Virus record (IMG/VR): IMGVR_UViG_3300045988_156524
Length of the DNA: 64,000 bases
Direction: 5' to 3' (one strand)
Origin: a virus
Taxonomy: Duplodnaviria; Heunggongvirae; Uroviricota; Caudoviricetes
In this document: positions 5,618 through 33,151 of the stretch, one piece after another
Numbering within the stretch: position 1 is the first letter of the stretch
Layout: each line of letters starts with the position of its first letter
Translations under genes and position numbers: made by a program
Notes under the pieces: model-generated
Told to the model about the DNA's origin: nothing
Seen by the model: only the letters and a program-made list of their open reading frames with translations
Databases searched by the model: none

Positions 5618-8605
5618 ATGAGCTTAAGCGATCAGGTGGTAATGGCCACCAGCATAGAAACGCTGATCGAGCTGCTAAAGAACCTGCCCGGTTATGGGCG
5701 GGTTTCGTATGTGGTGACAGCGAAGGGAGACGAGGTAAAAACAGCGTTTGATATCGTCGATGCCTCAGCTCTTTTGGTATCCAATACTCTGGATGGGAAA
5801 ATTAATCCTGACTATCCCCAGGAACTTCAGCCGCGCGACCGGACCCGCGCATCCAGCCTTCTTCAGGTTAACCAGATATCCAAAGATTTGCGGCCTGCTC
5901 AGCTTACTGATTCCGGTTTATCCAGCCATGGTGCGCCGATAATTGGTGAGGACAATGCCGTTGAGTCAGGTAATGGACGGACCATGGGGATCATCAAAGC
6001 CTATCAGGACGGCAATGCGGATCGGTATCGTGAGTACCTGATTGATCATGCGACCGAATTCGGCATACGACCTGAAAAGGTTGAATCAATGACGGCTCCG
6101 GTACTGGTGCGCCGCCGGTTAACCAAGGTTGACCGCGTTCAGTTTGCCAAGGACTCAAATATTTCTGATCTTCAGGAAATGGCAGCCAGTGAAAAGGCTT
6201 TTGTTGATGCCGACAGCATAACACCGGCGATGATGGCGCTTTTTAACCCGTCAGAAAGCGGAGATCTGCTTAGCCGCAGTAATGACGCGTTTATTCGCGG
6301 ATTTATGACGCAAGTTGGTGCCACACAGGCGGCTGGCCTTGTAACGGAAGATGGGCGACCAACGCGGCAACTTGTTGACCGTATACAAAACGCGATCTTT
6401 GCCAAGGCATATAAGGATGCGCGCCTGGTAAGGATGGTTGCAGAAGAACCTGATCCGGATATGCGTAATGTTCTGACGGCGCTTAATGCGGCAGCCAATG
6501 ATTTTGTCCAGATGCAGGCTTTATCAGGAGAAGCGCACAAGCAGGCTGTGACAACTATTGTTGATGGCATTGAGACAGCGGATAGCCTCGATAAAAAGGC
6601 GCTGGCGGCATTGAAAGATGCGGTAGACCTGGTAAGGCAATCGAAGGAGTCAGGCCAGCATATTACCGATGTTATTGCTCAGGGGGATATGTTCAGCGAA
6701 ACGGCCCCGGAAGTGAAAGCACTCGCGTTGTTCATCGTCGCGAATAACCGTAGCGCGAAGCGTATGGCCACCGCCTTTAAGTTGATGGCTCAACGTATCA
6801 ATGATGAGTTACAGCACCAGGGCCAGGCGCTGGGGGATATGTTTGGCGGTGGTGATGTGTCGTTACAGGATATCCTTCGCCAGGTGTCTCAGGAACTGGA
6901 AAACGAAGGCATGCAAGGGATATCCGGCGGTCTTTTCGAGTCCGTTTCCGGCGGTAGTTACAATGGTGTTGCTCCATATACCAGTTTGCTATTACATCGG
7001 GCATCCGGCATCAAAGACATTATTCATCTGATCAGGCTGCTTTCCCGTACAGATCCCCAGGATGAACAGCTTGTACAAGTGCTTGCGCATTTTGTTCGAA
7101 TGCCTGTTGCCGACGTGAAAAAATGGTGCCGATTATTCGGTATCAGCAATTCGTTACTTCGCGGCTTGTTAAATCACGCATCCTCCCTTGGGCGCGATGG
7201 CTTTGACGAGATAGCGCAGGCGATAAAAAACGGAGATATGCCACCAGCTATTGACTGGTTTTCCATTCGCCCAACCAGGGTGAAAGCATTCCTTAGCGCG
7301 GCGCATTCGGCATCACCATTGGCAGAAATGGTTCAGAGGTTGTCGCTCATATTCACAGACCATACCGCGTTGGGTGATCTGACTCTGGACGAGATGAAAG
7401 AAGCCTCCATTCAGTGGGCCGATCAACAAAATGAGGTTAACTATGACTTCTTGCCAGCATTCAGGAAGGCCGTTAGTAAAGCTGATGATGCCCGTGGAAT
7501 TCTGAGGGCATTTAAGGCATTGCAAAGTCAGGTTAATAAACATGTCGGTGATATCGATGGGGTAACGGCGGAAGGCAGGGATATCCTTAAAGAGCACGGC
7601 ATAACGCCAGAGTTTATTGATGAGATCAGGACTGATATGCAGCGTGAGGTCGTATCGTCCCTGCAAATCGTAGCCAGAGCGTTGGCGGATGCTAATCCGA
7701 AGAGTGCGGCCATTGTTAACCGTGTTATTGGTGATATTGAAGCATCGGAGGGCATGGGGGCGCTGAAACTCTTCCTTTCGCGAGCGTTTAATCCTAACGG
7801 CAATATTCTCCCCGGCATTATTGGTGAGGCTAAAAAGTATGTCAGCGAAGAAGAACTTGAGCATCTTGACCAACTACTTAAGCGATTCTCATATAACCCG
7901 CAGACACGCTGGCAAATGAATCAGCAAAGTATGGGTTCGGTCCACGAGAAAGTGTTATCTGCCATGAACAGTGCGATCGCCAACTCATCCGTATCTGAAG
8001 AAAAAGCTCTTGAGTGGGCCGACTCTTTTATCACGGAAGAAGTGGAAGAAGCCCGCGCTGGACAGAATGGTGGGATAGACCTGCGCAAGGAACTTGCTGA
8101 TATTTATCGCCTGACCGGCGGTAAAATTTCGACCTTATCAAAGGTGGTTCACCACCAGGGAAGGGCATATGCAAATATTAATGGTGTTGTTGCTGTCAAT
8201 TTGAACGATGAAAATGCAAGTGCACTGTGGCACGAGCTGGGTCATCATCTTGAGTACAGTAACCCTGGTTTGTTAGAGAAAGCCCGGTCATTCCTGAAGG
8301 CCAATGTTGAAGGGGATAAGCCATCTTTCGTTAATATCGGTGGGCGTGGCAAGCCTGAATGGTGCTTCAGATCTCGATTGAGTAATATTTATATGGCGAA
8401 GGTATACCCGCCAGCCTCAGTAAGTAACACCGGGAAAATTCGGCAGAAATCACCGACTATTTCCAAAACGTCAGCAACGGAAGTATTCTCTATGGCTCTT
8501 CAGTTGTATCATGACAAAGAGGCCGCTGCCGCATCACTGATGAATGGTGACGGATTGCTGGAACTGTTATTAGGTGTGGCAAAGGAGCTAAATAATGCAG
8601 ATTAA
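5618..8605 (+). CDS. ddrB: Large dar-operon protein (995 aa) with an HELGHH zinc-metallopeptidase-like motif
   Basis: ATG 5618; HExxH motif (WHELGHHLEY) near C-terminus; synteny. Confidence 0.5.
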   Translation: MSLSDQVVMATSIETLIELLKNLPGYGRVSYVVTAKGDEVKTAFDIVDASALLVSNTLDGKINPDYPQELQPRDRTRASSLLQVNQISKDLRPAQLTDSGLSSHGAPIIGEDNAVESGNGRTMGIIKAYQDGNADRYREYLIDHATEFGIRPEKVESMTAPVLVRRRLTKVDRVQFAKDSNISDLQEMAASEKAFVDADSITPAMMALFNPSESGDLLSRSNDAFIRGFMTQVGATQAAGLVTEDGRPTRQLVDRIQNAIFAKAYKDARLVRMVAEEPDPDMRNVLTALNAAANDFVQMQALSGEAHKQAVTTIVDGIETADSLDKKALAALKDAVDLVRQSKESGQHITDVIAQGDMFSETAPEVKALALFIVANNRSAKRMATAFKLMAQRINDELQHQGQALGDMFGGGDVSLQDILRQVSQELENEGMQGISGGLFESVSGGSYNGVAPYTSLLLHRASGIKDIIHLIRLLSRTDPQDEQLVQVLAHFVRMPVADVKKWCRLFGISNSLLRGLLNHASSLGRDGFDEIAQAIKNGDMPPAIDWFSIRPTRVKAFLSAAHSASPLAEMVQRLSLIFTDHTALGDLTLDEMKEASIQWADQQNEVNYDFLPAFRKAVSKADDARGILRAFKALQSQVNKHVGDIDGVTAEGRDILKEHGITPEFIDEIRTDMQREVVSSLQIVARALADANPKSAAIVNRVIGDIEASEGMGALKLFLSRAFNPNGNILPGIIGEAKKYVSEEELEHLDQLLKRFSYNPQTRWQMNQQSMGSVHEKVLSAMNSAIANSSVSEEKALEWADSFITEEVEEARAGQNGGIDLRKELADIYRLTGGKISTLSKVVHHQGRAYANINGVVAVNLNDENASALWHELGHHLEYSNPGLLEKARSFLKANVEGDKPSFVNIGGRGKPEWCFRSRLSNIYMAKVYPPASVSNTGKIRQKSPTISKTSATEVFSMALQLYHDKEAAAASLMNGDGLLELLLGVAKELNNAD

Positions 8606-8906
8606 AATCGCAGCGCCATTAGGCGGAGATGCCATTATCGAATTTGATGATAATGAAGAAGTTTCCGGGCGTTTAAGCATTATCTCCGGTGACATTACCG
8701 AGGACATGATCGCTGAAGCCATAGCTGGGGCAAATCCCAATAGCTATATGGGATTCGTTAACACCCTTGATGCTCCCGCAAGTGATGTTCTCCGAACGCT
8801 GCATCTTTACGCTGGCTGGTTTGTTGATTGGCCAGCAGTAGATGGTGGCGATGAGGACGACGACGACGATGATTTTGGTGATCATGTAGACCAGATCGTA
8901 TATTGA
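8595..8906 (+). CDS. Acidic hypothetical protein (103 aa, poly-Asp tail)
   Basis: ATG with AAGGAG RBS, overlaps upstream stop. Confidence 0.4.
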   Translation: MQIKIAAPLGGDAIIEFDDNEEVSGRLSIISGDITEDMIAEAIAGANPNSYMGFVNTLDAPASDVLRTLHLYAGWFVDWPAVDGGDEDDDDDDFGDHVDQIVY

Positions 8907-8936
8907 AGAAATCCCGCCAATTGGCGGGATTTTTAC
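8906..8936. terminator. Bidirectional rho-independent terminator between convergent genes
   Basis: Perfect palindrome AAATCCCGCCAA/TTGGCGGGATTT flanked by T runs on both strands. Confidence 0.7.
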
Positions 8937-8937
8937 C

Positions 8938-10032
8938 TCACGAGAAACTCTTTTCTGATGTCAGCCAACAGTGCTCGTGCATATCTCTTGGTGGTTTTTC
9001 GACAAATGCCTCTTCAGCCACATCCTGCCAGGGGATTTGTTTAGCCCATTCAGTTATAGCGTTATGGTTTGCCGAGAATAACGGTATTGTATAGGCCTTC
9101 AGCCAGTCTAATGTGCTGGAGTTGTGTTTTTGAGCGTGATGTTTCGCATGGTGTTTGGCGATCACGATCGTAGGCACTACCCATTTACTACCGTCAGTCA
9201 TTGTGAAGTGCATATTACGGGGAACAGATGACTTTTCCATCAACTCCCGAATCCCGGGGAATTTCCCCAAGATCAATCGGCGATATTCATCGCTATTGCG
9301 CCCACCAAACTCTTTGGCTTTGAATTCAAGATATGCTTCAGAAACGAGAGGTGAATCCTCTGTGTTTAGAGTTATCGCCGTGAAAAAACCAGCAGGATTG
9401 TTTTTACTATGGGCCAACCGGTGATGCGAATCATAAAAGTACCCTTTCTCGCGTTCCGATGGTTTCGACAGCAACAGCAGGCGCGAGTCATAATTGGTTA
9501 AATTGCCAGTTATCACTGCATGAGCGCGATCGCTGATTTCCGCCGAGTTAATAACGATGAAAAGATCGTGCGGTCCAGTAAAACCAGCCAGAGACTCTTC
9601 GTTATTCAGACAATAGGTTATATAGACGCATCCCCATGTTTCACTGATATGCACCAACCCTTTGTCAGGGTGTATTCTGAAATAATTGCCAAGAAAAGGG
9701 TGTTTTTGGGTAACTCGCTCCCAATAACGGAACATATAGTCAATTATTGTTTTTCGACAATCGTTAATCGCAGGAGAAACAACCACTGTACGGGAACACG
9801 AATACAGTATTGTTTGCAGGATGCTAATCACTGCCACAATAGAGGTTTCCCCAATACCATGTGGTGTGGTGGCAGTGATTTTGGCTCCGGTGTTCTTTAT
9901 CGCGTTAATAATTTTTGCTTGATGAGGTGTTAACTCAATATCAAGCAACTCTTTTGCTGCCAGTTCCCAATTGTCTTTATACCGTTCTATCAGTGCTAAC
10001 CAGGCAGATTCATTCTGTATACGATTAATCAC
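8938..10032 (-). CDS. PacB-like terminase large-subunit paralog, ATPase domain only, Walker motifs degenerate (364 aa)
   Basis: Aligns with PacB at 30474-31958 (shared block LLLLSKP...[11 protein letters not shown]); Walker A GHGTGKS replaced by PHGIGETS, Walker B IIDEAS by VINSAE. Confidence 0.6.
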   Translation of the reverse strand: MINRIQNESAWLALIERYKDNWELAAKELLDIELTPHQAKIINAIKNTGAKITATTPHGIGETSIVAVISILQTILYSCSRTVVVSPAINDCRKTIIDYMFRYWERVTQKHPFLGNYFRIHPDKGLVHISETWGCVYITYCLNNEESLAGFTGPHDLFIVINSAEISDRAHAVITGNLTNYDSRLLLLSKPSEREKGYFYDSHHRLAHSKNNPAGFFTAITLNTEDSPLVSEAYLEFKAKEFGGRNSDEYRRLILGKFPGIRELMEKSSVPRNMHFTMTDGSKWVVPTIVIAKHHAKHHAQKHNSSTLDWLKAYTIPLFSANHNAITEWAKQIPWQDVAEEAFVEKPPRDMHEHCWLTSEKSFS

Positions 10033-10813
10033 TTTCCACCTCTTCCGTGGTGTTTTCTTGCAGTTCTGTTAATGCAGCACGACATAGGTTCCGGGCATTG
10101 GCTATAGCCACACTTTTGACTTCATCCGTCATCGTGCAGGTAATGTACTGATCGAGTTCTTCAGCGCGGATGATGCTTTTGCCAATCAGAAACTGTATTT
10201 GCCATAGCAGATCGGCATCCATAATCAGAATTTCTGCCGGGCCTTCAGGGCCAGCCGGGAAGGAAACATAAGACTGTTTGCCCAGGCCGACAACTCGACA
10301 ACTTGCTTCAAGAATTGCGCGCTTGAGGTCTGACTTTATAACGGAAACAGGTTGATTTTCACCAGTGATTACGCCGTTGACATGGAAAGGCATGTAGCTT
10401 GAAATACGCTCTACTTTCCACACGCCAGCAAGCGATCCTTCATGCAGCACAATGGGGGTAACCGCGAGTTTCATCTCACCATATAACTGCTGGCAGATAG
10501 CTGGATTGCTGAATACATCTAAAGGCTCACATTCAAACAGCGGCGCAATCTGCATGAGGTCCATCATGGTCATCCCTGGGGTACGAGCAGTAATGAATTT
10601 GCGCATACCAGTATCCATTGCGCTCCAGATTGCTACACCATGCTTTTTGCTCACTTCTTCAGTAAAGCCAAGGTGGCACATGATGGTTTTTTCGATAGCC
10701 AGATCAGAGATAGAAACCTTTTCGCCAGGTACTCCATCATTATTGATGGTCACTTCGACACTCTGGCCATTACGTAGGCGGTATTGAATGGTTTTAGTAT
10801 TTTGTGCTGTCAT
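10025..10813 (-). CDS. Hypothetical protein (262 aa from ATG at 10813)
   Basis: Long ORF co-directional with the PacB paralog; start uncertain. Confidence 0.4.
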   Translation of the reverse strand: MTAQNTKTIQYRLRNGQSVEVTINNDGVPGEKVSISDLAIEKTIMCHLGFTEEVSKKHGVAIWSAMDTGMRKFITARTPGMTMMDLMQIAPLFECEPLDVFSNPAICQQLYGEMKLAVTPIVLHEGSLAGVWKVERISSYMPFHVNGVITGENQPVSVIKSDLKRAILEASCRVVGLGKQSYVSFPAGPEGPAEILIMDADLLWQIQFLIGKSIIRAEELDQYITCTMTDEVKSVAIANARNLCRAALTELQENTTEEVESD

Positions 10814-11015
10814 AGTCTTTTCTCTGCTTAAAAACTGATGTATTGCGTCTTCAGGTGGGTTAGGAATGTTTTCCCACCAGCGAAAGCAATATCTCGTGGT
10901 GTTCTGTTCGTTAAAAACGCGTGCCATTGCCAACTTTGGCGTTTTTTAGCGAGTTCGTGCTTTTGTTGGCGTTTGGACCACCGCTTTTCTTTCAGTCGTT
11001 TTTTACTCATAAACT

Positions 11016-11504
11016 CTAAAACGGAATATCGTCTTCAAAGTCCATTGGAGGTTCGTTATTGGCGCTGCTCTGAGGTTTGCCGCCACCGCTGTATTGCTGG
11101 TGGTTTTGAGGTTGGTTTGACTGCCCCCTGCCATTTGAGGACTGTGAATCGTCGCGGCGAGTGCCGATCATTTGCATGGTGCCGCCCTGGCTGACGATAA
11201 TTTCCGTCGTGTAACGTTCTACACCGGCGTCATCAGTCCACTTACGGGTTTTAAGTTTCCCTTCGATGTAGACCTGAGAACCTTTTCGTAAATACTCACT
11301 CGCAATTTCAGCAAGTTTTCCGAACAAAACGACTTTATGCCATTCTGTTTGCTCTTTCTGTTGGCCCGTTTGCTTATCGCGCCATGATTCATTCGTTGCG
11401 ATGCTGAGTCTTCCGACTGCGCCGCCATTTGGTATATACCTGATCTCCGGGTCTTGCCCCAGGGTACCAATCAGGATGACTTTGTTTACACCGCGTTGTG
11501 CCAC
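11016..11504 (-). CDS. ssb: Single-stranded DNA-binding protein
   Basis: [21 protein letters not shown]-fold N-terminus, Gly/Gln-rich linker, acidic DDIPF tail; GTG start. Confidence 0.9.
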
Positions 11505-11523
11505 TTTTCTTACCTAATAAAAT

Positions 11524-11540
11524 AAATTAATTAGAGCAAT
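11524..11540 (-). promoter_or_regulatory. C1 repressor operator-like site
   Basis: Reverse complement ATTGCTCTAATTAATTT, one mismatch to the 17-bp C1 operator consensus ATTGCTCTAATAAATTT as I recall it. Confidence 0.55.
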
Positions 11541-11563
11541 AATGTATATCTTTGAAACGTGGC

Positions 11564-11586
11564 TAACAAGTGATTTGCATTATCCT
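11564..11586 (+). promoter_or_regulatory. Candidate late promoter upstream of lyz (TAACAAGTGATT, 5 nt, TATCCT)
   Basis: One of five instances of a T.ACAA.TGACT-like box followed 5 nt later by a -10-like hexamer, each upstream of a late-type operon. Confidence 0.4.
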
Positions 11587-11673
11587 GTTCCTTCTAAAGG
11601 GATCGAGTCAGTCGGTATTGGCTGTGAATGAGTGTTTGTCCTGGAGCGTAAAAAATTCGCTTATGAGGTCTTT

Positions 11674-12231
11674 ATGAAGGGAAAAACAGCCGCAGGAGGC
11701 GGTGCAATTTGCGCTATCGCGGTGATGATTACCATCGTGATGGGTAATGGCAATGTGCGAACCAACCAGGCGGGGCTTGAGCTGATTGGTAACGCTGAAG
11801 GTTGCCGACGTGATCCATACATGTGCCCGGCGGGGGTATGGACTGACGGGATCGGTAATACACACGGGGTAACGCCGGGTGTGCGAAAAACCGACCAGCA
11901 AATCGCCGCTGATTGGGAAAAGAATATCCTGATCGCTGAACGCTGTATTAATCAGCACTTCCGGGGCAAAGACATGCCCGATAATGCCTTCAGTGCAATG
12001 ACAAGCGCGGCATTCAATATGGGATGCAATAGCTTACGGACCTACTACAGCAAAGCGCGAGGCATGCGAGTAGAAACGTCCATCCACAAGTGGGCGCAGA
12101 AAGGGGAATGGGTGAATATGTGTAACCATCTCCCTGATTTCGTGAACAGTAACGGCGTGCCCCTGCGAGGTTTAAAGATTCGCCGTGAAAAAGAACGCCA
12201 GCTTTGCCTGACGGGGCTTGTCAATGAATAA
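11674..12231 (+). CDS. lyz: SAR endolysin, T4-lysozyme-like (185 aa)
   Basis: N-terminal signal-anchor MKGKTAAGGGAICAIAVMITIVMG followed by a lysozyme catalytic region; ATG with GAGG RBS. Confidence 0.85.
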   Translation: MKGKTAAGGGAICAIAVMITIVMGNGNVRTNQAGLELIGNAEGCRRDPYMCPAGVWTDGIGNTHGVTPGVRKTDQQIAADWEKNILIAERCINQHFRGKDMPDNAFSAMTSAAFNMGCNSLRTYYSKARGMRVETSIHKWAQKGEWVNMCNHLPDFVNSNGVPLRGLKIRREKERQLCLTGLVNE

Positions 12232-15320: not shown

Positions 15321-18300
15321 ATGAACAAGCTATCTATGGGGGTGTTTCGCTGTTCAAGTGTCAGCGAAATATTGAAATACATTAGGGCAATAACATCTCA
15401 CCGAGCGCCGATTAAATACGGCGTGGAAAAGGTGGAAGGCAAAAGCTATGACCGACTGCGCCGTGAGGCGAATCAGAAGGCGATAGATTTGCTTAATTCG
15501 CTGGTGGACGGCGCGACACTGACAGATGAACAGCGCCAGATCCTGGCTGGGTACACCGGTGAAGGCGGCATTGGCGGGTCCGTCTCCGAATATTACACAC
15601 CAAAGCCGATCGCTGAAGGTGTCTGGGAGATCATGAAGCTCTACGGCGCGGACGTAGGTAACACTCTGGAACCATCGGCGGGAACCGGCGTTTTTAATGA
15701 GACAAAACCGGTTGGTACGGTGATGACCGCGACTGAGATCAGCAGTGTTTCCGGTCGTATAAACCAGCTGTTGCACCCGGAAGACAGCGTACAGATTTCT
15801 CCGTTCGAACAACTGGCTGTAAGCACGCCTAACGATTCATTCGACCATGTTGTGGGTAACGTTCCGTTCGGTGGTCGTGATAACACACGCAACATCGATA
15901 AGCCTTACGCAGAAGAAACGGACATGGGTTCTTACTTCATGCTCCGCATGCTGGACAAGATAAAGCCAGGCGGATTCATGTGCGTGATTGTGCCGCCGTC
16001 CATTGTTTCAGGTTCAAACATGAAGCGGTTACGCCTGCGCCTATCACGGAAAGCTGAATTTCTTGGTGCCCACCGCTTGCCTACCGGTACTTTTGACGCA
16101 AACGGGACCAGTACAGTTGTTGATGTGGTGCTGATGCGCAAACATCCGGCAGAGATGGCTGAGAAAATCCCCCTGGTGGATGAAAGCACTCTCGAATCGG
16201 CAAATGTGCTTTGGCCAACGTTTATTTCTGGCAAGTGGTTTGAAAAGGACGGCCGCCGGTTTGTTCATGGCACCCAGGAAAAGGGCTTCCAGGGGCGTAT
16301 TGAGGTTCGTGCCGACGGTCAGATTGATAACCAGGCTCTTAAAGCGAAGCTGATTCATCGTTTCGAAAGCCGTATCGACTGGTCTTTGCTCGATATGGCT
16401 GAACCGTCACCGACCGCAGACGTTGTTGGTGAAGGGGAAATGCGCCTGATTAATGGCGTATGGCAAAAATATGCTGGTGGTCGCTGGATTGAAGCTGATG
16501 CCGGGAAGGAACTTAAGATCGATGCTGCCAGTTATGGCGCGGATAGCTGGGAGGCTCTTCAGCGTAACCTGACTACAACAGAAGGCCGTCTCGGCATGAC
16601 ATTTACCCAGATGGCAAATGTCCGCGATAAGTACACCACATCAATCAGCGACGATATGGTGCAGCTGGTGGACTGGATTAACAGCCAGCCTGAAAAATAC
16701 CGTGAACGCTTGTATCGCGGGGCGATGATTGGCCGGATGTTAATTGAATATCAGGACATGAAGGCCGCCGGGCATAGTGCTGAACAAATCGAACAGCAGC
16801 GCCTTTCTCTGGTATCCCGTTTGCAGGCAGAGATTGACCGTTTTGGTAACCCCGGTCGCGGTCCGATAGCGAAATTGTCGGGGAGCGGTGCGCGCGCCTG
16901 GTTTGCTTTCCGTGGTGCAATTAAGCTGGATGGCACTATTTCTGACGAGCTGACAGGGAAGCTGGTTACGCATGATTCCAGCGCAAGTTATGACTCCACC
17001 AGCTATCAGGACACCCTGCGTTATCTCTATAGCGATCTCACCCGCGATCCAATCCAGCTCGATGATTTCCGCCTTGCGTTTACCGGCGAACTGCCAGCCA
17101 GTGATGAAGAGTTGCTTAATTTATTGGCCAGCACCCCTGGTATTGCGGTTTCACCGTATGGCGGGATTGTTCCGTTCGCCCGCGCCACCAGCGGCGACAT
17201 TAACGAGATAGTGGCTCCAAAACAGGAATTCCTCGCCACACTCCCCGACGGTCCAGTAAAGAACAACGTCCTTAATCAGCTGGCAGCTATCGAAGAGAAG
17301 CGCATCAAGACGCCAGCAGAGAATATCCGGTTTAAGCTCAATAGCCGTTGGTTCGACCGTTCCGTCATTCTGGAATTTTTGCAGGAAAACGGCTATCCGG
17401 ATCTGCGCTATGTGCAGTCAGTGCAGCTGGAAGGCGACGAAATGGTTTCTGACACCTATCACGGTGGTGATGGTCTGTTCGTCGGGCACCGATACGGTGT
17501 CGTCCAGCGCAAGGATAAAGAAACAGGTGAGATTCGCTACGAGTGGGACCGTAAATCAGGTGAAAACGCGACCGGGTTCCCGGCACAGCTGGAAAAGTAT
17601 CTCAATGGTGCGCGTATCGGTGGCAAAGATAGCGCGACGGCGAACGGCTACCGCGAGCAGATGGCACTGCTTGAGGACCAGTTCAATAAGTGGATCAAGA
17701 CGCACGATCGCTACGATGAGCTGGTTGCCAAATACAACGATGTGTTCAATAGCAATATCCCGTATGAACACTCTGGCGATCCGCTTGGGTTGAAGGGATT
17801 AAGCGGTAAGCGCCAGCCATTTGATTACCAGAATAGCGAGGTGCGCCGACTGTCCGAAGATGGGCGCGGCATCCTGGGCTTCGGCACCGGGCTGGGTAAA
17901 ACCACGACCGCGCTGGCGCTTGAGGCGTTCAACTATGAGAACGGTCGCTCCACCCGTACTGCGTATGTAGTGCCTAAATCAGTGCTGGAAAACTGGTATT
18001 ACGAAGCAAAAGAATTCCTGAGTGAAGAGGCATTCAGTAACTACCTGTTCGTCGGTCTTGATGTGCTGATGGATGGCGATCAGATTCGCCAGGTGCAGGT
18101 GCTCGATGAGAACGGTAAACCTGTTCTTGGTACTGATGGCACTCCAGTTATGCGCGATGCTCTTAAGCTGGCAGATGAAGCCACTATCACGGCGCGGATG
18201 AACGCGATCCCGCACTCAAATTACCGTGCAGTCGTGTTTACCAAAGAACAATACGCCCGCATTCCGCTACGTGATGACACCGTAGATGAGCATGCACAGG

Positions 18301-21300
18301 ATATGCTTTATGACTTCGTTGCCGCCGGACGCGTAGCCAGCGCAATGGACTCCGACTCCCACCGCAAAGAGGCCGCGCGTCGCCGGGTATTGTCGGAGTA
18401 TTCAGATACCGGCACCGAAAAAGCAGAGAAGTATCCGTACTTTGAGGATATGGGCTTCGATAGTGTGATCGCTGACGAAGGTCACAACTACCGCAATAGC
18501 TATAAAAATGGTCGCGAAGCGTCACAACTGGCCTATCTGCCCACCAGCGCGGTGGCGCAATCGGCGCGAGATATGGCAATTAAAAACGCGTACCTGATGA
18601 AAAAGAATGGTGGGCGCGGGCCGGTTCTCCTGACTGCAACGCCAGTCGTTAACACCCCGATCGATGCATACAACATGCTTTCTCATGTTCTGCCGAAGGA
18701 ATACTGGCAGAACATGGGGATCTACGGTCCTGATGACTTCGTTAAATTCTTCGGCAAGACCAGGCTGGAAACGGTACAGAAAATTAGCGGTGAAGTTGAA
18801 GAAAAAATGGCGCTGGTGGGCTTTGAAAACCTTGATGCGCTGCGCGGTATATTCCATCGCTGGGTAACGCTTAAAACGGCGGAAGACGTTAAGGATACCG
18901 TGGAGATCCCGGAGCTGGACGAACACCAGCAGGATGCACCACTTACTGAAGAACAACTGGCGGCGTATGAAGAATTGCGTCAGCAGGCGGAAGCGGCGGC
19001 CAAAGCCAACAATGGCGTAACGACCTCGGTCAATGAAGACGGCGTGATTGAGCACGAGAAAGCCCGTCCGATCTTCTCAATAATCAGGGATATGGACCGC
19101 GTATGTACTGACATGGACCTGTACTATCGCCGGATCACCTATCGTTTCCTGCCGGAGTACGCCGATGCGGTGCAGCAGCTGGCGGACAGTTTGCCTAAAC
19201 AAGCCACCAGCGAAGACGACGACAGTGATGATTCAATCACGCAGCAATCGCAATACTCCCTGATAGATAAGGGCGAGTTTATTCAGTTGCAGGTTCCGGA
19301 AGCGTTCGAGCAGGAAGTGAATAAGCGCCTGGCCAGGTTTGGCATTGACGAACAGACCGTAACTCACCCCGTTACGCCCAAATACGCGAAGCTGATTGCC
19401 ACGCTGAAGGAGTTTTTCCCGGAAGGTAAGCAAATCATCTTCACCGATGAAAAAACGCAGCACCAGAAGCTCAAGCGCATTATCTGCAATGCTCTTAACC
19501 TTGAACCTTCAAAGGTGGGGATACTGAATGCTCAGACGGTTGCCGAGGCAGGTAAAACCGGTAAGAAACTGAAAGCGGTTAAACCGCCGAAAGAGTTACC
19601 GGATGAACCAACAGATGCACAGATAGCGAAATACAACGAGCAAATGGCTCTGTATGACGCCTATATCGCGCAGCAAAATGAAATGTCGTTGGGCGGTCTG
19701 GAAAAGATTGCAGCCGACTTCCAGGAGGGCCGGACTCCGATCATCATCTGCAACAAAAAGGCAGAGGTGGGTATCAACCTGCATCGAGGAACGACTGACA
19801 TCCATCATCTGACGTTGCCATGGACTCCAGCCAGTATTGCGCAACGAAACGGTCGCGGTGCCCGAGTTGGCTCCAACCGTGCAAGCGTTCGCGTTCACTA
19901 CTACTGCGGCAAGGGGTCTTTCGATGAATACCGACTGAAGACGCTGAAGCGTAAAGCAGGCTGGATCTCCGATATCCTCCGTTCAGATAAGTCAGAAATG
20001 GAGAACGCCGACGCCAACGATATGATCGAAATGCAGATGTATACCGCGAAGGATGACGGCGAACGTCTGGCAATGATGCAGGTTCAAATGGATAAGGCGA
20101 AAGCTGCGAAACGCGCTCGCCAGAAAGAACAGGCTACTATCGACCTTCAGAACTACATCAAGGCGCAGCACGCAGCTGGTGAGGATGTGGAGGTACTTAC
20201 CGCTGAATTGGAGCGAAGCAAAGCGGAACTTGAAAAGACCACCGCCGACGTCGCCAAATTCAAACAGGCGGTAATGGCCAAAGCAGCTGATAACGCAGAC
20301 TGGAAAGCCCGCTGGGGTAGCGTCCATCACACAGACCGTATGTTGTTAGCACAGTATCGCGCGTCGTTGAAAAGCGCCATTCAGCGCAAGGCTAATATCT
20401 CTCAGGCCATCTCCCGCTATGAGAAATTATTGAACCGTACTCAGAAGGCCGCGACGGATATCAAACGCCTGCGCCCGCTGGTGGAGGATGCAATAAATAA
20501 AGGCATTCTGGATGTTGATCCTGATCTGGTTAACCATGCGAATGAGTTCCTTGTTATCGGCGATCGCTCATGGCGTGTAGGCCAATACTATGATTGTGCC
20601 GGTGATATCGTTCGCATTAAGTCGCTGGACTTCGACAGCCAGCGCGCAGACGTGGAGATCATCTTTACCTTCAAAGGCACCAAATCGGGTAACTGGGATG
20701 TGAAGACGCTGGATAAACAGGTTGATGTAACTCCCGATGAAGATGCTGTTATGCAGAAAATCAGTGGTGGCGTCTCCATCGCCGGGATTAACGACATCGT
20801 TTCCTGTGACGATTTCTACCGTTTCCAGCAGCGCGGCATGATCAAAATCACTGACTCATACGGCGTTCAGACTACAGAGTCAGGCTATAGCATTGATTTT
20901 GTTGGTACCTATACGGACCCACTGAAGCATGCGGTTTACCCGGATCGCCGTGACGGCGCGCTGAAGTCGTCAATTGCAAAATGGGTGCTTGGTATGATGT
21001 CGGAAGGGAATAACCGCCAGATCCGTTCGGCAGAAACATTCCTGGTTGAACTGTTTGGCTCCAATTATGGCGATGTAATCGCGTCATACGGAGATACGCT
21101 ATCCCCTGAAGCAATTCAGGAGAAAATAGCGGATGCGATCGCCAGAATGCCGGAAAAAACAAGCCAGGGGGCTACTCGTAACGGGGATTCTGAACTTGAA
21201 GTCACCAATGCCATTTTCGGTACCAATGAGTTCCGGGCGTCAGATTATGAGATCACCACAGCACAGTTTGGCACCATTGGCATTTACAGCAATAAAGACG

Positions 21301-22088
21301 AGATCAAGCAGACAATGGACGCAGCAAGCGCGCGCATTGCAGCAGAACGGAAAGCCAATCTGAATCATGCAGTCGCCGCGCTGACTCAATCGTGGGTAAC
21401 AGCAATCAGGGAGGCCGCCACCACAGGGAAAATCACACCGGCAATTGCGGATGTCGTAAACGACGGCTCTAAATTTATGGATGCCTATCAAATGGATGCG
21501 GTGCAGTTGCCATCAGCCTATGGGCAACTCAGCTATCGCATGACCTACAACCTGGTATCAATGTTTACCGACCTTGCCATCCTTGGGCTGGTGGATCTTA
21601 ACGAGGTTACGCCGGAATTGCTCAGCATGCGCAAGAATCATGTGGAGATATTGCACAGAATTAACACGGTACTTGCCGGGCGCACCGATGAAGAGAAACA
21701 GGCAGACGCTGATCGGATAAACCTGGCCCTTGGCAACATCACGGAGGAAGAAATTGCCGCCAGAAACGAGAAACAAGAAGAGTTATCATCAATACAGGGT
21801 GATGCCACCAGCATAGCTCAGTCTCTTGGTCTGAATTATCGCGTATCCACCGCCGACCTGAAGATGATGTACGCACCAAAATTCGCCGCTGGCGAGGTAT
21901 TTGGGCTTCAGGAAGCCTCCGGCATGAAAGGGGTTCTTTTCCGTGCGAAAGACGCAATCAAGGCGAAATTCGGCGCTCGCTGGTTGCCAGCGAAGGCGAA
22001 GAACAGCGACTTCCCAGGTAACTGGTGGATTATCGAGACAAAACACAACGTGGCGGACGTTCTGGCCGTCATCCAACAATACGCATAA
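15321..22088 (+). CDS. darB: DarB-like antirestriction protein: N6-methyltransferase-like plus SF2 helicase-like (2255 aa)
   Basis: EPSAGTGVF (SAM motif I), VGNVPFGG (motif IV variant), GFGTGLGKTT (Walker A), IADEGHNYRN (DExH); size matches P1 DarB. Confidence 0.85.
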   Translation: MNKLSMGVFRCSSVSEILKYIRAITSHRAPIKYGVEKVEGKSYDRLRREANQKAIDLLNSLVDGATLTDEQRQILAGYTGEGGIGGSVSEYYTPKPIAEGVWEIMKLYGADVGNTLEPSAGTGVFNETKPVGTVMTATEISSVSGRINQLLHPEDSVQISPFEQLAVSTPNDSFDHVVGNVPFGGRDNTRNIDKPYAEETDMGSYFMLRMLDKIKPGGFMCVIVPPSIVSGSNMKRLRLRLSRKAEFLGAHRLPTGTFDANGTSTVVDVVLMRKHPAEMAEKIPLVDESTLESANVLWPTFISGKWFEKDGRRFVHGTQEKGFQGRIEVRADGQIDNQALKAKLIHRFESRIDWSLLDMAEPSPTADVVGEGEMRLINGVWQKYAGGRWIEADAGKELKIDAASYGADSWEALQRNLTTTEGRLGMTFTQMANVRDKYTTSISDDMVQLVDWINSQPEKYRERLYRGAMIGRMLIEYQDMKAAGHSAEQIEQQRLSLVSRLQAEIDRFGNPGRGPIAKLSGSGARAWFAFRGAIKLDGTISDELTGKLVTHDSSASYDSTSYQDTLRYLYSDLTRDPIQLDDFRLAFTGELPASDEELLNLLASTPGIAVSPYGGIVPFARATSGDINEIVAPKQEFLATLPDGPVKNNVLNQLAAIEEKRIKTPAENIRFKLNSRWFDRSVILEFLQENGYPDLRYVQSVQLEGDEMVSDTYHGGDGLFVGHRYGVVQRKDKETGEIRYEWDRKSGENATGFPAQLEKYLNGARIGGKDSATANGYREQMALLEDQFNKWIKTHDRYDELVAKYNDVFNSNIPYEHSGDPLGLKGLSGKRQPFDYQNSEVRRLSEDGRGILGFGTGLGKTTTALALEAFNYENGRSTRTAYVVPKSVLENWYYEAKEFLSEEAFSNYLFVGLDVLMDGDQIRQVQVLDENGKPVLGTDGTPVMRDALKLADEATITARMNAIPHSNYRAVVFTKEQYARIPLRDDTVDEHAQDMLYDFVAAGRVASAMDSDSHRKEAARRRVLSEYSDTGTEKAEKYPYFEDMGFDSVIADEGHNYRNSYKNGREASQLAYLPTSAVAQSARDMAIKNAYLMKKNGGRGPVLLTATPVVNTPIDAYNMLSHVLPKEYWQNMGIYGPDDFVKFFGKTRLETVQKISGEVEEKMALVGFENLDALRGIFHRWVTLKTAEDVKDTVEIPELDEHQQDAPLTEEQLAAYEELRQQAEAAAKANNGVTTSVNEDGVIEHEKARPIFSIIRDMDRVCTDMDLYYRRITYRFLPEYADAVQQLADSLPKQATSEDDDSDDSITQQSQYSLIDKGEFIQLQVPEAFEQEVNKRLARFGIDEQTVTHPVTPKYAKLIATLKEFFPEGKQIIFTDEKTQHQKLKRIICNALNLEPSKVGILNAQTVAEAGKTGKKLKAVKPPKELPDEPTDAQIAKYNEQMALYDAYIAQQNEMSLGGLEKIAADFQEGRTPIIICNKKAEVGINLHRGTTDIHHLTLPWTPASIAQRNGRGARVGSNRASVRVHYYCGKGSFDEYRLKTLKRKAGWISDILRSDKSEMENADANDMIEMQMYTAKDDGERLAMMQVQMDKAKAAKRARQKEQATIDLQNYIKAQHAAGEDVEVLTAELERSKAELEKTTADVAKFKQAVMAKAADNADWKARWGSVHHTDRMLLAQYRASLKSAIQRKANISQAISRYEKLLNRTQKAATDIKRLRPLVEDAINKGILDVDPDLVNHANEFLVIGDRSWRVGQYYDCAGDIVRIKSLDFDSQRADVEIIFTFKGTKSGNWDVKTLDKQVDVTPDEDAVMQKISGGVSIAGINDIVSCDDFYRFQQRGMIKITDSYGVQTTESGYSIDFVGTYTDPLKHAVYPDRRDGALKSSIAKWVLGMMSEGNNRQIRSAETFLVELFGSNYGDVIASYGDTLSPEAIQEKIADAIARMPEKTSQGATRNGDSELEVTNAIFGTNEFRASDYEITTAQFGTIGIYSNKDEIKQTMDAASARIAAERKANLNHAVAALTQSWVTAIREAATTGKITPAIADVVNDGSKFMDAYQMDAVQLPSAYGQLSYRMTYNLVSMFTDLAILGLVDLNEVTPELLSMRKNHVEILHRINTVLAGRTDEEKQADADRINLALGNITEEEIAARNEKQEELSSIQGDATSIAQSLGLNYRVSTADLKMMYAPKFAAGEVFGLQEASGMKGVLFRAKDAIKAKFGARWLPAKAKNSDFPGNWWIIETKHNVADVLAVIQQYA

Positions 22089-30473: not shown

Positions 30474-31958
30474 TTATTCATTAAGCCATGCCAGAGCTTC
30501 ATCAACCTGCGCTTCGTCTTCGACGCTAAGCACTTCATCCTGGGGAACATAGTTCGCCAACATAGCGAAACAATATGTATCCCAATGGTCCGGTGAGTGC
30601 AGGTTGAGTTTTTTCTTCATATCTTCCTTTGACATCACCTTCCATTGACCTGCGGAATTTATCCCTACCGGTATCTTTGATGCTTCCTCTATAGTCGCAG
30701 CCCCCTTATCAAGCCTCATACGCCCTGATTTTACAGCTTCTGCCGCCTGAATATTCGCGAAAGCGCGCATATCGAAATAAAGGCTTTTATCTTCACGGCT
30801 GTGCATCTTTTTACCCCAGCGGATACGCTGGACGGTAATGCCATAGCGTTCGTACATTAGATCAGCCGTCGATTTCCCCAAGCCATCGCCATCAATAGCT
30901 ATGGTTATGTTCGGGAACCGTTCTGGGTTACATTCTGCGAAAATCTTGGCGGCTAACTGCGTTTCTGTAACGTCTGTGTATTCCAGCATACGATAGTTGA
31001 TTACACGGCGTTTATTTCGCTGGCCGGACACCATCATGATATTAATAACGGACTTATCTCGTCCTGTGCCACCAGCAACGTCAACACATGCAACCCAGCC
31101 CCATCCTTTGGCAATCTTGACCTTTCGCCGCGTCGCCCGCTCAACCTCATCACGACCAAGAAGAAAGCCATCTTGAGATTTGGGAAATTCACCACGTACT
31201 TTGATCATGTACATGGGGTTATCACGACCGCCATACTCCGCAAGTTTTGCTCGTATAAATTTTGCATCTACAAGCGGAGATTCTTCACTATTCAGTATTA
31301 TCGCAGTAAACAATCCATCAGGATTTCCCGGGCGAATAGCTAGTCTGTGGTGTGAATCGTAGAAATAGCCTGAAGGTCGCGTAGGCTGGGAAAGAAGCAG
31401 AATACGGTTATCCTTACCGGTCAGCGCACCTGTTATCACACTGAATGCTTTATCACTCACACCCGACGCTTCGTCGATGATATACAAGAGATGATCGGCG
31501 TGTTCACCAGCCAACGCCTCCTCATTCCCGGGGCGACAGGACTTTATCAATATTGTCCAAACACCCTTGCCAGTCACCTCAAAAAAAGACGTTTCTGTAA
31601 GAATGAAATACTTCGACAACCACGGGAATCTGCTAACAGCAGTAGCCCAATTGCTCTTTATGTATTTGAAAATACCATCAAGGACTTGCTGTCTTTTGTT
31701 AGCGACCAGAATGACGCGAGCGCCGGGGAAAAACATGATGAAGAGTATTGCAATGATACTCGTCATATCCGATTTACCAGTACCATGGCCGGAGGTCACA
31801 CTTGTCCAACTGCCGTCCTGCTGCGTGGACTCAATGATCTCATCCTGCTGCCAGGTTGGTGTCTTCCCAAACAACACATCAGCGGCCGCAATCCAGTCAT
31901 AACGATATAGCGCCACCAGCTCGCGCCAACGTGGGTCCGTTACGCAACTTCTGGCCAT
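30474..31958 (-). CDS. pacB: Terminase large subunit PacB (494 aa)
   Basis: Walker A GHGTGKS, Walker B IIDEAS, downstream nuclease domain; ATG overlaps pacA stop. Confidence 0.9.
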
Positions 31959-33151
31959 TAATCATCATCCCCGTACAGTTTGCGGGTAACTTCTTCGTCT
32001 TCCTCCTCGTCTTCGTCCAGATCCTGTTCAAGCCATGCTTCGTTTGATATGCCTTCCGCATCGACATCACCATAACCACCTGTATCGACGATATCGGCAA
32101 TTTCTTCTCTACGATGCTCAATCCACAATGCGGCATCAGCGCGGCGGCTGGCGGCCCGTTCTCGCGCGATTTTATCCAGATCTTCAAGTGATGGAGCGCC
32201 AGATGCTGTTTGGTTTTCCTCATCATCGGTATTGGTCTTAGGAGCACGCAGATCGGCTTTGATTTGCTCCAGCATCAGGGGAGGCACTTTTCCTCCATGC
32301 GCCTCGATGAATTCAGCCGCTTCCAGCACTGACCAGTTATTTTCACGCTTTCGTTCGTATGCCAGCTTAACAATGCCAGCTTGCCCCATAGATAAAGCGT
32401 GCTTTTCCGCCTCCCGGCTTTCTTTTCGATAGTTATTCCGGATGCTGTAAATGGTGTTGATCAGGCTGCTTATCTGCGCGGAACAGCTGTTTAGCATGCT
32501 CGCGATACGGTATTCAGGCGGAGTACCTTCATCATCGTCTTTTTGCTGATCGCGCATTTCCTGCACCAGGCGAATACACGTATCCCTGGCGTTCTCCAGC
32601 ATAAGGAGATGAGAAAGAGACTTTTCCAGAAGAGTGGTTTCCAGAACATCGGCCCCGGACCGACGCAACATAGCGCGCGCGGCCTTCCGCGCTTCAACGT
32701 TATCTATCAGGTAATCGCCAGCTTCGAATTCAAAGCGTTCACCATCATCATCCAGGGTGTCGCGTTCCAGGCGATCACGTAAGGTACGGTGGGCGCGGGT
32801 GATCACGTCATGATCATCAGAACGATCATTTATGCGCTTATTTTGGCGCTTAGCGTTCTCGACTGCGGCACTGACAACGGCATTAACTCTTTGTTTTTCC
32901 GCTGTTTCAGCCGCAAGGTGATCACCTGCATGTTGATCATTAGAGTGATCAATGATCATGCTTTTTAGAGGCTTCCTGACTGGCTTATTTGGCTTGCGGC
33001 TGTCCGCTGTCCTGGTGTCTTCTTTGAAGGCACGGAGATAACGACGTGCGGTATTAGGGTTAAGATTAAACTCGGCGGCATACTGTGCGATGGTGTAACC
33101 ACCATCTCGCGCCAGGCGAGCAAAATTCTTCTTGTGATCGTCCCAGGTCAC
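31958..33151 (-). CDS. pacA: Terminase small subunit / pac-recognition protein PacA (397 aa)
   Basis: [28 protein letters not shown]...; contains the pac site; acidic C-terminus. Confidence 0.9.
32801..32959. other. pac packaging site: 3 + 4 TGATCA/G-type hexamers flanking a roughly 90-bp spacer
   Basis: GATC hexamers at 32801, 32812, 32824 and 32920, 32935, 32947, 32954. Confidence 0.85.

Follow-up and report, generated by a model that had tools for sequence, protein, structure and literature searches.

A catalytically degenerate paralogue of the PacB terminase ATPase domain in P1-like phage-plasmids

The locus and the loss of catalytic motifs

The DNA analyzed here, IMG/VR virus record IMGVR_UViG_3300045988_156524, is a stretch of 64,000 nucleotides (the window) from a P1-like phage-plasmid (Punavirus). 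On its minus strand, between hxr and isaA, lies an open reading frame (ORF) encoding a shortened, degenerate relative of PacB, the active large terminase subunit (TerL) of the same element; we use the shorthand X for this PacB paralogue (Table 1). The surrounding region (8600-11600) is matched over its full length by Escherichia phage vB_EcoM-813R1 (98.9%) and by two isolates named 'P1' (96.5%), whereas the match to reference P1 covers only 63% of it. The coding sequence (CDS) of X, of 1095 nt, is likewise annotated in MH422554.1, CP057875.1 and NZ_CP062890.1. The vB_EcoM-813R1 copy (L003, ON470617.2, ~1835-2929; L and P numbers are our handles for sequences and proteins) carries a 1-nt frameshift near its 3' end that cuts the C-terminal domain, its CDS being annotated as 1071 nt; this may be a sequencing error or a real lesion.

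The original prediction, made from the sequence alone, described the product of this ORF as a terminase paralogue with dead ATPase motifs that aligns along its length with the ATPase domain of PacB. The similarity proved significant, with 98 of 284 residues identical to PacB of the window (35%, BLASTP E=1e-51), a block GYFYDSHH common to the two proteins and identity of 60–70% at residues 181-220. The alignable part is, however, limited to residues ~11-285; residues ~266-364 form a separate domain, and the nuclease half of PacB has no counterpart in X. An AlphaFold2 model of X built on a 93-sequence alignment has a mean predicted local distance difference test score (pLDDT) of 88.7, exceeding 93 for residues 11-260, and its best PDB matches in Foldseek are the TerL ATPase domains of Sf6 gp2, P74-26, D6E, HK97 and T4 gp17 (entries 4idh, 4znk, 5oe8, 6z6d and 2o0j; E values of 1e-9 to 1e-6). 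Judged by these alignments, X is a true PacB paralogue, a duplicate of the PacB ATPase domain, with pacB as its source lineage.

Both nucleotide-binding motifs are degenerate. Where PacB has the Walker A sequence S56-G-H-G-T-G-K62-S, X reads T56-P-H-G-I-G-E62-T, the lysine being replaced by Glu62 and the first glycine by Pro57. At Walker B, LLYIIDE of PacB corresponds to DLFIVIN, with Ile161 in place of the aspartate and Asn162 in place of the catalytic glutamate. The pairing first proposed for Walker B (VINSAE with IIDEAS) was out of register by one residue, but the acidic pair is absent either way. The nuclease domain is missing, as had been predicted, and an unrelated domain of ~95 aa stands in its place. 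We compared X with five defining features of TerL. The ATPase-domain fold is present by model and BLASTP; the Walker A catalytic lysine (SGHGTGK followed by S or T), the Walker B run of hydrophobic residues with Asp and catalytic Glu (hhhhD and E), the C-terminal RNase H-like nuclease domain and adjacency to pacA in a packaging operon are all absent, X lying ~20 kb from pacAB. X is thus not a terminase, four of the five features being lacking. We infer that it can neither hydrolyse ATP nor cut DNA, and ATP binding has probably been lost as well; with catalytic motifs and nuclease domain gone, X would act by binding.

Database annotation of the family is sparse. Pfam, NCBIfam and PADLOC searches gave no match for X, IsaA or Hxr. 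In PHROGs, X falls in phrog_5902, a family with no function assigned (E=2.6e-187, residues 1-364 on profile positions 1-359 of 359), and the TerL family phrog_2 matches weakly. PHROG 5902 and the GenBank entries labelled 'hypothetical protein' or 'terminase large subunit' represent the same family as X. 'Hypothetical protein' is its label in databases apart from MH422554.1 and MH445380.1 (L002), where it is called 'terminase large subunit'; given the lost motifs and missing nuclease domain, the latter label is a misannotation. In the literature library that we searched, no paper was found on the X family or on a dead terminase paralogue in P1-like elements.

Table 1. Features of the X locus and comparator genes in the window
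Feature	Position	Strand	Remarks
X (364-aa PacB paralogue)	8938-10032	-	ORF real; GTG start with Shine-Dalgarno-like GAGGTG ahead of it
X N-terminal domain, residues 1-265	9238-10032	-	Large-terminase ATPase-domain fold, PacB-derived (BLASTP, AlphaFold2, Foldseek)
X degenerate Walker A/P-loop, T-P-H-G-I-G-E-T	9844-9867	-	Direct sequence reading and alignments
X degenerate Walker B strand, L-F-I-V-I-N-S-A-E	9538-9564	-	PacB counterpart L-Y-I-I-D-E-A-S-G
X C-terminal domain, residues 266-364	8941-9237	-	~95-aa alpha/beta module, unrelated to the TerL nuclease domain
isaA	10025-10813	-	262 aa from the ATG at 10813; ORF open up to 10933; upstream partner of X
ssb	11016-11504	-	First gene of the operon; P1 annotation
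C1 repressor operator ATTGCTCTAATTAATTT	11524-11540	-	One mismatch to consensus; 20 nt upstream of ssb
GC-rich hairpin AAATCCCGCC-AATT-GGCGGGATTT and T run	8909-8934	.	Between convergent hxr and X
hxr	8595-8906	+	P1 annotation
ddrB	5618-8605	+	P1 annotation
lyz	11632-12231	+	P1 annotation; pro and prt beyond
darB	15321-22088	+	After pro and prt; P1 annotation
pacB	30474-31958	-	494 aa; active large terminase subunit with SGHGTGKS, IIDEAS and C-terminal nuclease domain; comparator, outside the X locus
pacA	31958-33151	-	P1 annotation

A family of dead paralogues under selection

In order to place X among its relatives, we searched 1.84 billion representative proteins exhaustively with HMMER, which returned 749 relatives, and aligned the top 150 for motif columns. 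A word-index protein search had yielded three relatives only, and a scan of genome contigs gave active PacBs, one identical X copy and a partial near-identical match (residues 151-364). In the top-150 alignment, essentially every relative of ~470-570 aa keeps SGHGTGKS and (I/V)DEASG. A set of shorter proteins of 230-444 aa (X, P0002, P0004, P0006, P0007, P0009, P0010, P0013, P0014, P0043 and P0062) has neither the P-loop lysine nor the Asp-Glu pair and ends where the ATPase domain ends. Column statistics showed that the active-site positions conserved in at least 80% of the active relatives are all lost in this set; in PacB numbering they are S56, G57, H58, T60, K62, A86, Q91, H153, D162, E163, S165, G166, T193 and R194, and include the Ser, Gly, His, Thr and Lys of the P-loop, the His of AGEH, the Walker B Asp-Glu-x-Ser-Gly and the Thr and Arg of SQPTR. 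Structural glycine, proline and aromatic positions are retained, as is Q38. The residues that replace the lost ones vary within the set, the former lysine position, for example, holding E, R, H, T, M, I or C, and no acidic pair is conserved; such variability indicates that no alternative catalytic set evolved. The same division was seen in IMG/VR, where 39 of 39 loci encoding 362-364-aa proteins are degenerate (P-loop variants TPHGIGET, TP[HY]GIGRP, TPEGIGQK, TPTGIGHK and VGEGVGTK) and every protein of 492-502 aa has SGHGTGKS.

Neighbour-joining analysis of the ATPase domain grouped the dead proteins other than P0041 in one clade with a long stem, within the PacB-type lineage, at a bootstrap support of 173/200, or 134/200 when the motif columns were removed. 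By this tree, the members of the clade share a single origin. P0041, a nuclease-less TerL-like protein of 268 aa with degenerate motifs (VVSKAAE in the Walker B region), groups with a different clade of active terminases and possibly represents an independent origin of a dead terminase domain.

Several lines of evidence indicate that X is maintained. By Nei–Gojobori estimates, the ratio of non-synonymous to synonymous substitution rates (dN/dS) is 0.09 between two alleles of X from rep_cluster_1704 elements (L007 and L011) and 0.30-0.34 between the window allele and alleles that diverge from it by 5.5-6.5% (31 synonymous and 40 non-synonymous differences). When the window type is set against the rep_cluster_1704 type, synonymous sites are saturated and dN is ~0.4. 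In complete Escherichia coli genomes, 101 of 101 copies of X are full length, 99 of them on plasmids. By these comparisons, X is under purifying selection and is not a decaying relic, and the earlier proposal of a retained, catalytically dead paralogue holds, with motifs lost, dN/dS of 0.09-0.34 and copies intact. It is a pseudoenzyme, having lost its catalytic residues while evolving under purifying selection with an intact predicted fold.

The view that X has no function and is decaying, as what is left of a duplicated terminase or of one captured from elsewhere, would account for the loss of all catalytic motifs and of the nuclease domain, and for the absence of X from many relatives. Against it stand the intact reading frame in all of the E. 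coli copies and the 39 IMG/VR loci, dN/dS values of 0.1-0.3, a protein similarity that outlasts saturated synonymous divergence, the confidently folded model, the lengths held at 250-366 aa across a diverse clade and a conserved overlap with isaA, described below. We consider a remnant extremely improbable, and a pseudogene reading of X was rejected on selection and intactness.

Within the window lineage, amino-acid changes in X are concentrated at residues 92-139 (nt ~9616-9759), which hold 18 of 35 changes relative to L038 and form the segment least like PacB; this segment may be a patch of recombination or an interaction surface that varies. Comparison of the L007 and L008 alleles revealed a mosaic, with dS of 1.36 and dN of 0.42 in the N-terminal domain and dS of 0.06 in the C-terminal domain, which indicates recombination at the domain boundary. 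Together, the clustering and the mosaicism suggest ongoing change beyond plain conservation.

Operon, distribution and genomic neighbours

The GTG start of X overlaps the isaA stop codon by 8 nt (GTGATTAA), and X is the last cistron of ssb-isaA-X. The operator ahead of ssb sits where P1 has Op21/Ossb and the promoters P1ssb and P2ssb (P1 annotation). The hairpin downstream of X (RNA folding energy -21.1 kcal/mol, z=-4.3) was not called by a simple terminator scan of the window; from its sequence it is likely a bidirectional terminator ending the ssb-isaA-X transcript. Taking the C1 operator, the 8-nt overlap and the hairpin together, X is most likely expressed with ssb and isaA upon C1 derepression and is probably coupled translationally to IsaA. 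On the basis of the operator and the P1 annotation, X would be made early after loss of C1, before PacA and PacB, whose genes are late in P1. The phrase 'retained in an operon' used in the original prediction is apt for the end of the ssb-isaA operon but not for the distant pac operon. A search for the C1 operator consensus allowing up to three mismatches found 15 sites in the window against 0.37 expected (for example at 11524, 29023, 46663 and 63029), consistent with the dispersed C1 regulon of P1.

The association with IsaA is not confined to the window. The pair recurs with overlapping reading frames in rep_cluster_1704 phage-plasmids, where the two genes have diverged in parallel (IsaA 46% and X 48-53% identical), at a different genome position and in the order dut, Tad2-like, isaA and X, beside phd-doc. 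Of the IMG/VR loci of the window or rep_cluster_1704 type that include upstream DNA, 37 of 37 have an IsaA homologue as the immediate upstream neighbour. IsaA is the commoner of the two, being found in 474 plasmids, and has no Pfam match, no PDB sequence relative and no named relative. Comparison with PacA led us to reject IsaA as a PacA paralogue; since IsaA is not PacA-like and has no PDB relative, the idea that IsaA and X form a second PacA/PacB pair was rejected as well.

Many relatives have a Tad2-like gene (PF11195) as the immediate upstream neighbour of isaA. In the window, the isaA ORF remains open for 40 codons 5' of its ATG (10814-10933), and this stretch shares 67% identity with the leader at the N-terminus of the Tad2-like protein of SJ46 (L004, 2626-3471). 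From this match, a deletion seems to have removed a Tad2-like gene from the window and joined the remaining 5' end of that gene in frame to isaA. The anti-restriction Dar/Ddr genes flank the X locus on both sides.

X is an optional gene. In a screen of 5426 complete E. coli genomes, a P1-type pacB was found in 575 and X in 100, so that X is present in about one-sixth of the genomes bearing P1-type pacB. A tblastn search of PLSDB detected near full-length X-like genes in 162 of 784 matching plasmids; of the 784, 120 match X at 80% identity or more. In reference P1 (NC_005856), homology stops exactly at the X start codon, with IS1 and isaB found there instead; P7 has nmpC at this position and no X, and SJ46 has a Tad2-like gene and isaA without X. 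Comparison of the window with P1 (L001), P7 (L006), SJ46 (L004) and Ro157c2YLVW (L005), in which three genes of 95, 260 and 225 aa are annotated, identified the hxr-to-ssb interval (8906-11016 in the window) as a hot spot for cargo genes. This interval is the RD-2 variable region of Venturini et al. (PMC6906374), a location that explains the absence of X from reference P1 and P7. CRISPR interference in P1 showed isaA, isaB, ssb and hxr to be non-essential and pacA and pacB to be essential (PMC10695390). Two apparent relatives were discarded: IsaB of P1 is neither a remnant nor a relative of X (the DNA alignment breaks at the X start, BLASTP E=0.05, hhalign probability 0.1%), and the 260-aa 'isaA' product of SJ46 is IsaA itself rather than a short X.

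X might regulate the packaging of its own element, by binding PacA or by joining PacB as an inert subunit. It would then postpone or restrict pac cleavage and packaging until the late stage of infection, or else adjust headful packaging and transduction. X is a direct paralogue of PacB, and the element always carries an active PacB too (in PLSDB, in L033, and in L065 and L116 on one contig). The part of X best conserved with PacB, residues ~180-220, probably corresponds to the lid region that contacts neighbouring subunits in TerL ATPase structures; inactive subunits poison ring ATPase motors, and the early-type operon signals would place X in the cell ahead of PacB. Yet around 80–85% of pacB-bearing elements, P1 and P7 included, package normally without X. 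The gene never adjoins pacA or pacB, its position varies among lineages, its linkage is to IsaA rather than to the pac genes, and for an element to poison its own essential motor would be costly. We consider such a regulatory role unlikely.

Residues ~266-364 are well conserved in X-type proteins, with the motifs DGSxWxVP..VIA..HA, HTxPLF and DWA..xxW. Modelled alone, this domain is predicted with confidence to fold (pLDDT 79, core 86-95); a fold search gave no known relative, and no recognisable DNA-binding or nuclease motifs were found in X. Free-standing homologues of ~100-123 aa include P0156, P0125 (123 aa) and gp35 of Cronobacter phage JK004. The gene for P0156 shares an early region of a phage with those for ThyX and a metallophosphatase (L012), and gp35 (L036, 3510-3806; 98 aa) is encoded two genes past a ban-type DnaB helicase. 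In Xanthomonas phages such as Tenjo, the domain ends a 471-aa protein encoded beside recombinase, exonuclease and SSB genes. The P1-like contig L082 (3974-5062) encodes a 362-aa dead paralogue, 32 nt downstream of ban, whose C-terminal domain closely resembles gp35; the two are a fusion/fission pair. Being found both fused and free, the domain is a mobile module.

The more distant paralogues have other neighbours. Short dead paralogues of 252-266 aa are without the C-terminal domain. P0013 (263 aa; L030, 5336-6792) overlaps by 4 nt the end of a gene for a Ref-like RecA-dependent nuclease (PF16786); genes for a phage-type integrase and a HigB toxin are found on the same contig, of ~84 kb. A pacA/pacB/c1 cluster, with a PacB that shares 58% identity with that of the window, is located a few kb from P0014, P0007 is preceded by a radical SAM gene, and P0010 lies within an array of DUF551, Ead-Ea22 and DNA polymerase III theta genes. 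Neither the 73-aa ORF that follows P0007 nor the ORF that precedes P0009 is related to the C-terminal domain or to IsaA.

Neighbours of this kind could mean that X is a DNA-binding factor linked to replication or recombination, with no packaging tie left. The dead ATPase fold would then be a scaffold for DNA or protein, a partner of IsaA, SSB, Ban or Ref-like nucleases where DNA is being replicated or forms concatemers, for instance to protect ends or to handle forks and recombination. In line with this, X shares an operon with ssb in the window and follows dut in rep_cluster_1704 elements, one paralogue lies just downstream of ban and another overlaps the Ref-like nuclease gene, and homologues of the C-terminal domain occur near ban in JK004, in the recombinase/exonuclease/SSB cluster of Tenjo and with ThyX in L012. 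TerL ATPase domains grip DNA (PMC5389665). However, early arrays of phages routinely put unrelated accessory genes beside replication genes, the partners vary among lineages, and the short dead paralogues do without the C-terminal domain. X offers no recognisable DNA-binding or nuclease motif, the fold of its C-terminal domain has no known relative, and X is dispensable in P1. We regard a replication or recombination role as somewhat unlikely.

Possible roles and significance

X shares with PacB the homology of the ATPase domain, the fold and the GYFYDSHH block, and it is nested in the PacB-type TerL lineage. It differs in lacking the Walker A lysine, the Walker B Asp-Glu pair, the other invariant active-site residues and the nuclease domain, and in being an optional gene of a C1-operator operon away from pacA, whereas PacB is essential. 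Non-enzymatic proteins that act on terminases occur elsewhere: Ppi of Staphylococcus aureus pathogenicity islands (SaPI) and Rpp of phage-inducible chromosomal islands (PICI) bind terminase components and redirect or block packaging. Unlike X, these are small proteins unrelated to TerL; their target is the small terminase subunit, and satellites, not the phage itself, encode them.

By analogy, X would work most like the stand-alone terminase-ATPase-like proteins of phages, of which vs.8 of T4 is the type. vs.8, like X, duplicates the ATPase domain of the resident terminase without the nuclease and is encoded outside the packaging genes, but it keeps the Walker A and B motifs, is of T4-type terminase origin and has been shown to activate Avs2 (PMC13601566). 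X has lost both motifs, often has the extra C-terminal module and is paired with IsaA; since it is PacB-type and vs.8 T4-type, the two represent independent duplications. The KpAvs2 activators Ksap1 and Ksap2 (PMC11564622, PMC13601566) are lineage-restricted, dispensable phage proteins, which PMC13601566 describes as resembling the terminase ATPase domain in structure. Ksap1, however, has 74 aa and no terminase sequence homology, and X, with 364 aa, is a homologue of the full ATPase domain. T4 vs.8, Ksap1 and Ksap2 all interact with Avs2, and the authors suggest that they are possibly anti-defence proteins (PMC13601566, PMC11564622).

Our preferred reading, held tentatively and at less than an even chance, is that X is an accessory conflict factor, acting in counter-defence or in competition between elements rather than in core packaging. 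We favour it because of the patchy hot-spot distribution, the Tad2-like and Dar/Ddr neighbours, the variable patch and the domain mosaicism, and because stand-alone terminase-ATPase-like proteins engage Avs2. X would use its terminase-ATPase-shaped scaffold to engage a partner that normally contacts the ATPase domain, for which the candidates are PacB or PacA, of its own or of a competing element, and a host immune sensor of terminase. The C-terminal module might tether X to a second partner in the replication/recombination neighbourhood. The benefit of X would be conditional, arising in counter-defence or competition. The original prediction saw in X a possible regulator, decoy or interference factor for packaging; the genomic context fits an accessory factor that works by binding, but it speaks for counter-defence or replication-linked roles no less than for control of packaging. 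EcAvs2 reads the ATP-loaded terminase active site, SeAvs3 reads the active site and the nuclease domain, and Upx recognises the ATPase domain alone (PMC13601566). As EcAvs2 reads an ATP-loaded site, a P-loop-dead copy should escape a sensor of this type; by analogy, such escape could explain why the motifs of X were free to decay, or were selected to.

Several points weigh against a conflict role. PADLOC, which covers proteins of defence systems and not of anti-defence, gave no match for X. The argument from Tad2-like and Dar neighbours is weak because phage early regions mix many functions, and the window itself has no Tad2-like gene. Repression by C1 should keep a gene such as X silent in lysogens, a point against an exclusion role encoded by the prophage. 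A mimic without active site and nuclease domain may simply go unseen by EcAvs2 and SeAvs3 rather than serve as a decoy. Upstream of the distant dead paralogues are found other partners (genes for a Ref-like nuclease and for a radical SAM enzyme, and ban), and these, together with the presence of the C-terminal module beside ban, ssb and recombinase genes, fit a role in replication or recombination equally well.

A more specific possibility, suggested by analogy and in our view distinctly unlikely, is that X is a terminase mimic shielding the real terminase from the terminase-sensing receptors Avs1-3 and Upx. Produced early, such a mimic would go undetected by sensors that recognise the ATP-loaded active site or the nuclease domain; it might occupy the sensor without allowing oligomerisation, or bind and hide free PacB monomers, with IsaA and the C-terminal module as co-factors. 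If this were true, X would be the first example of an anti-defence protein that arose from the target which the defence itself recognises.

Large terminases are the most conserved proteins of phages and a main target of bacterial pattern-recognition immunity. A selectively kept family of dead terminase domains in P1-like phage-plasmids means that this fold has been reused for a job other than that of a motor. The recurring label of 'terminase large subunit' could mislead terminase-based typing of phages. P1-like elements are common, around 10% of complete E. coli genomes having a P1-type pacB, and both natural carriers and non-carriers of X exist, with reference P1 as a natural null that can be complemented. 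X thus provides a test case for what stand-alone terminase-like proteins such as T4 vs.8 and Ksap1 and Ksap2 do.

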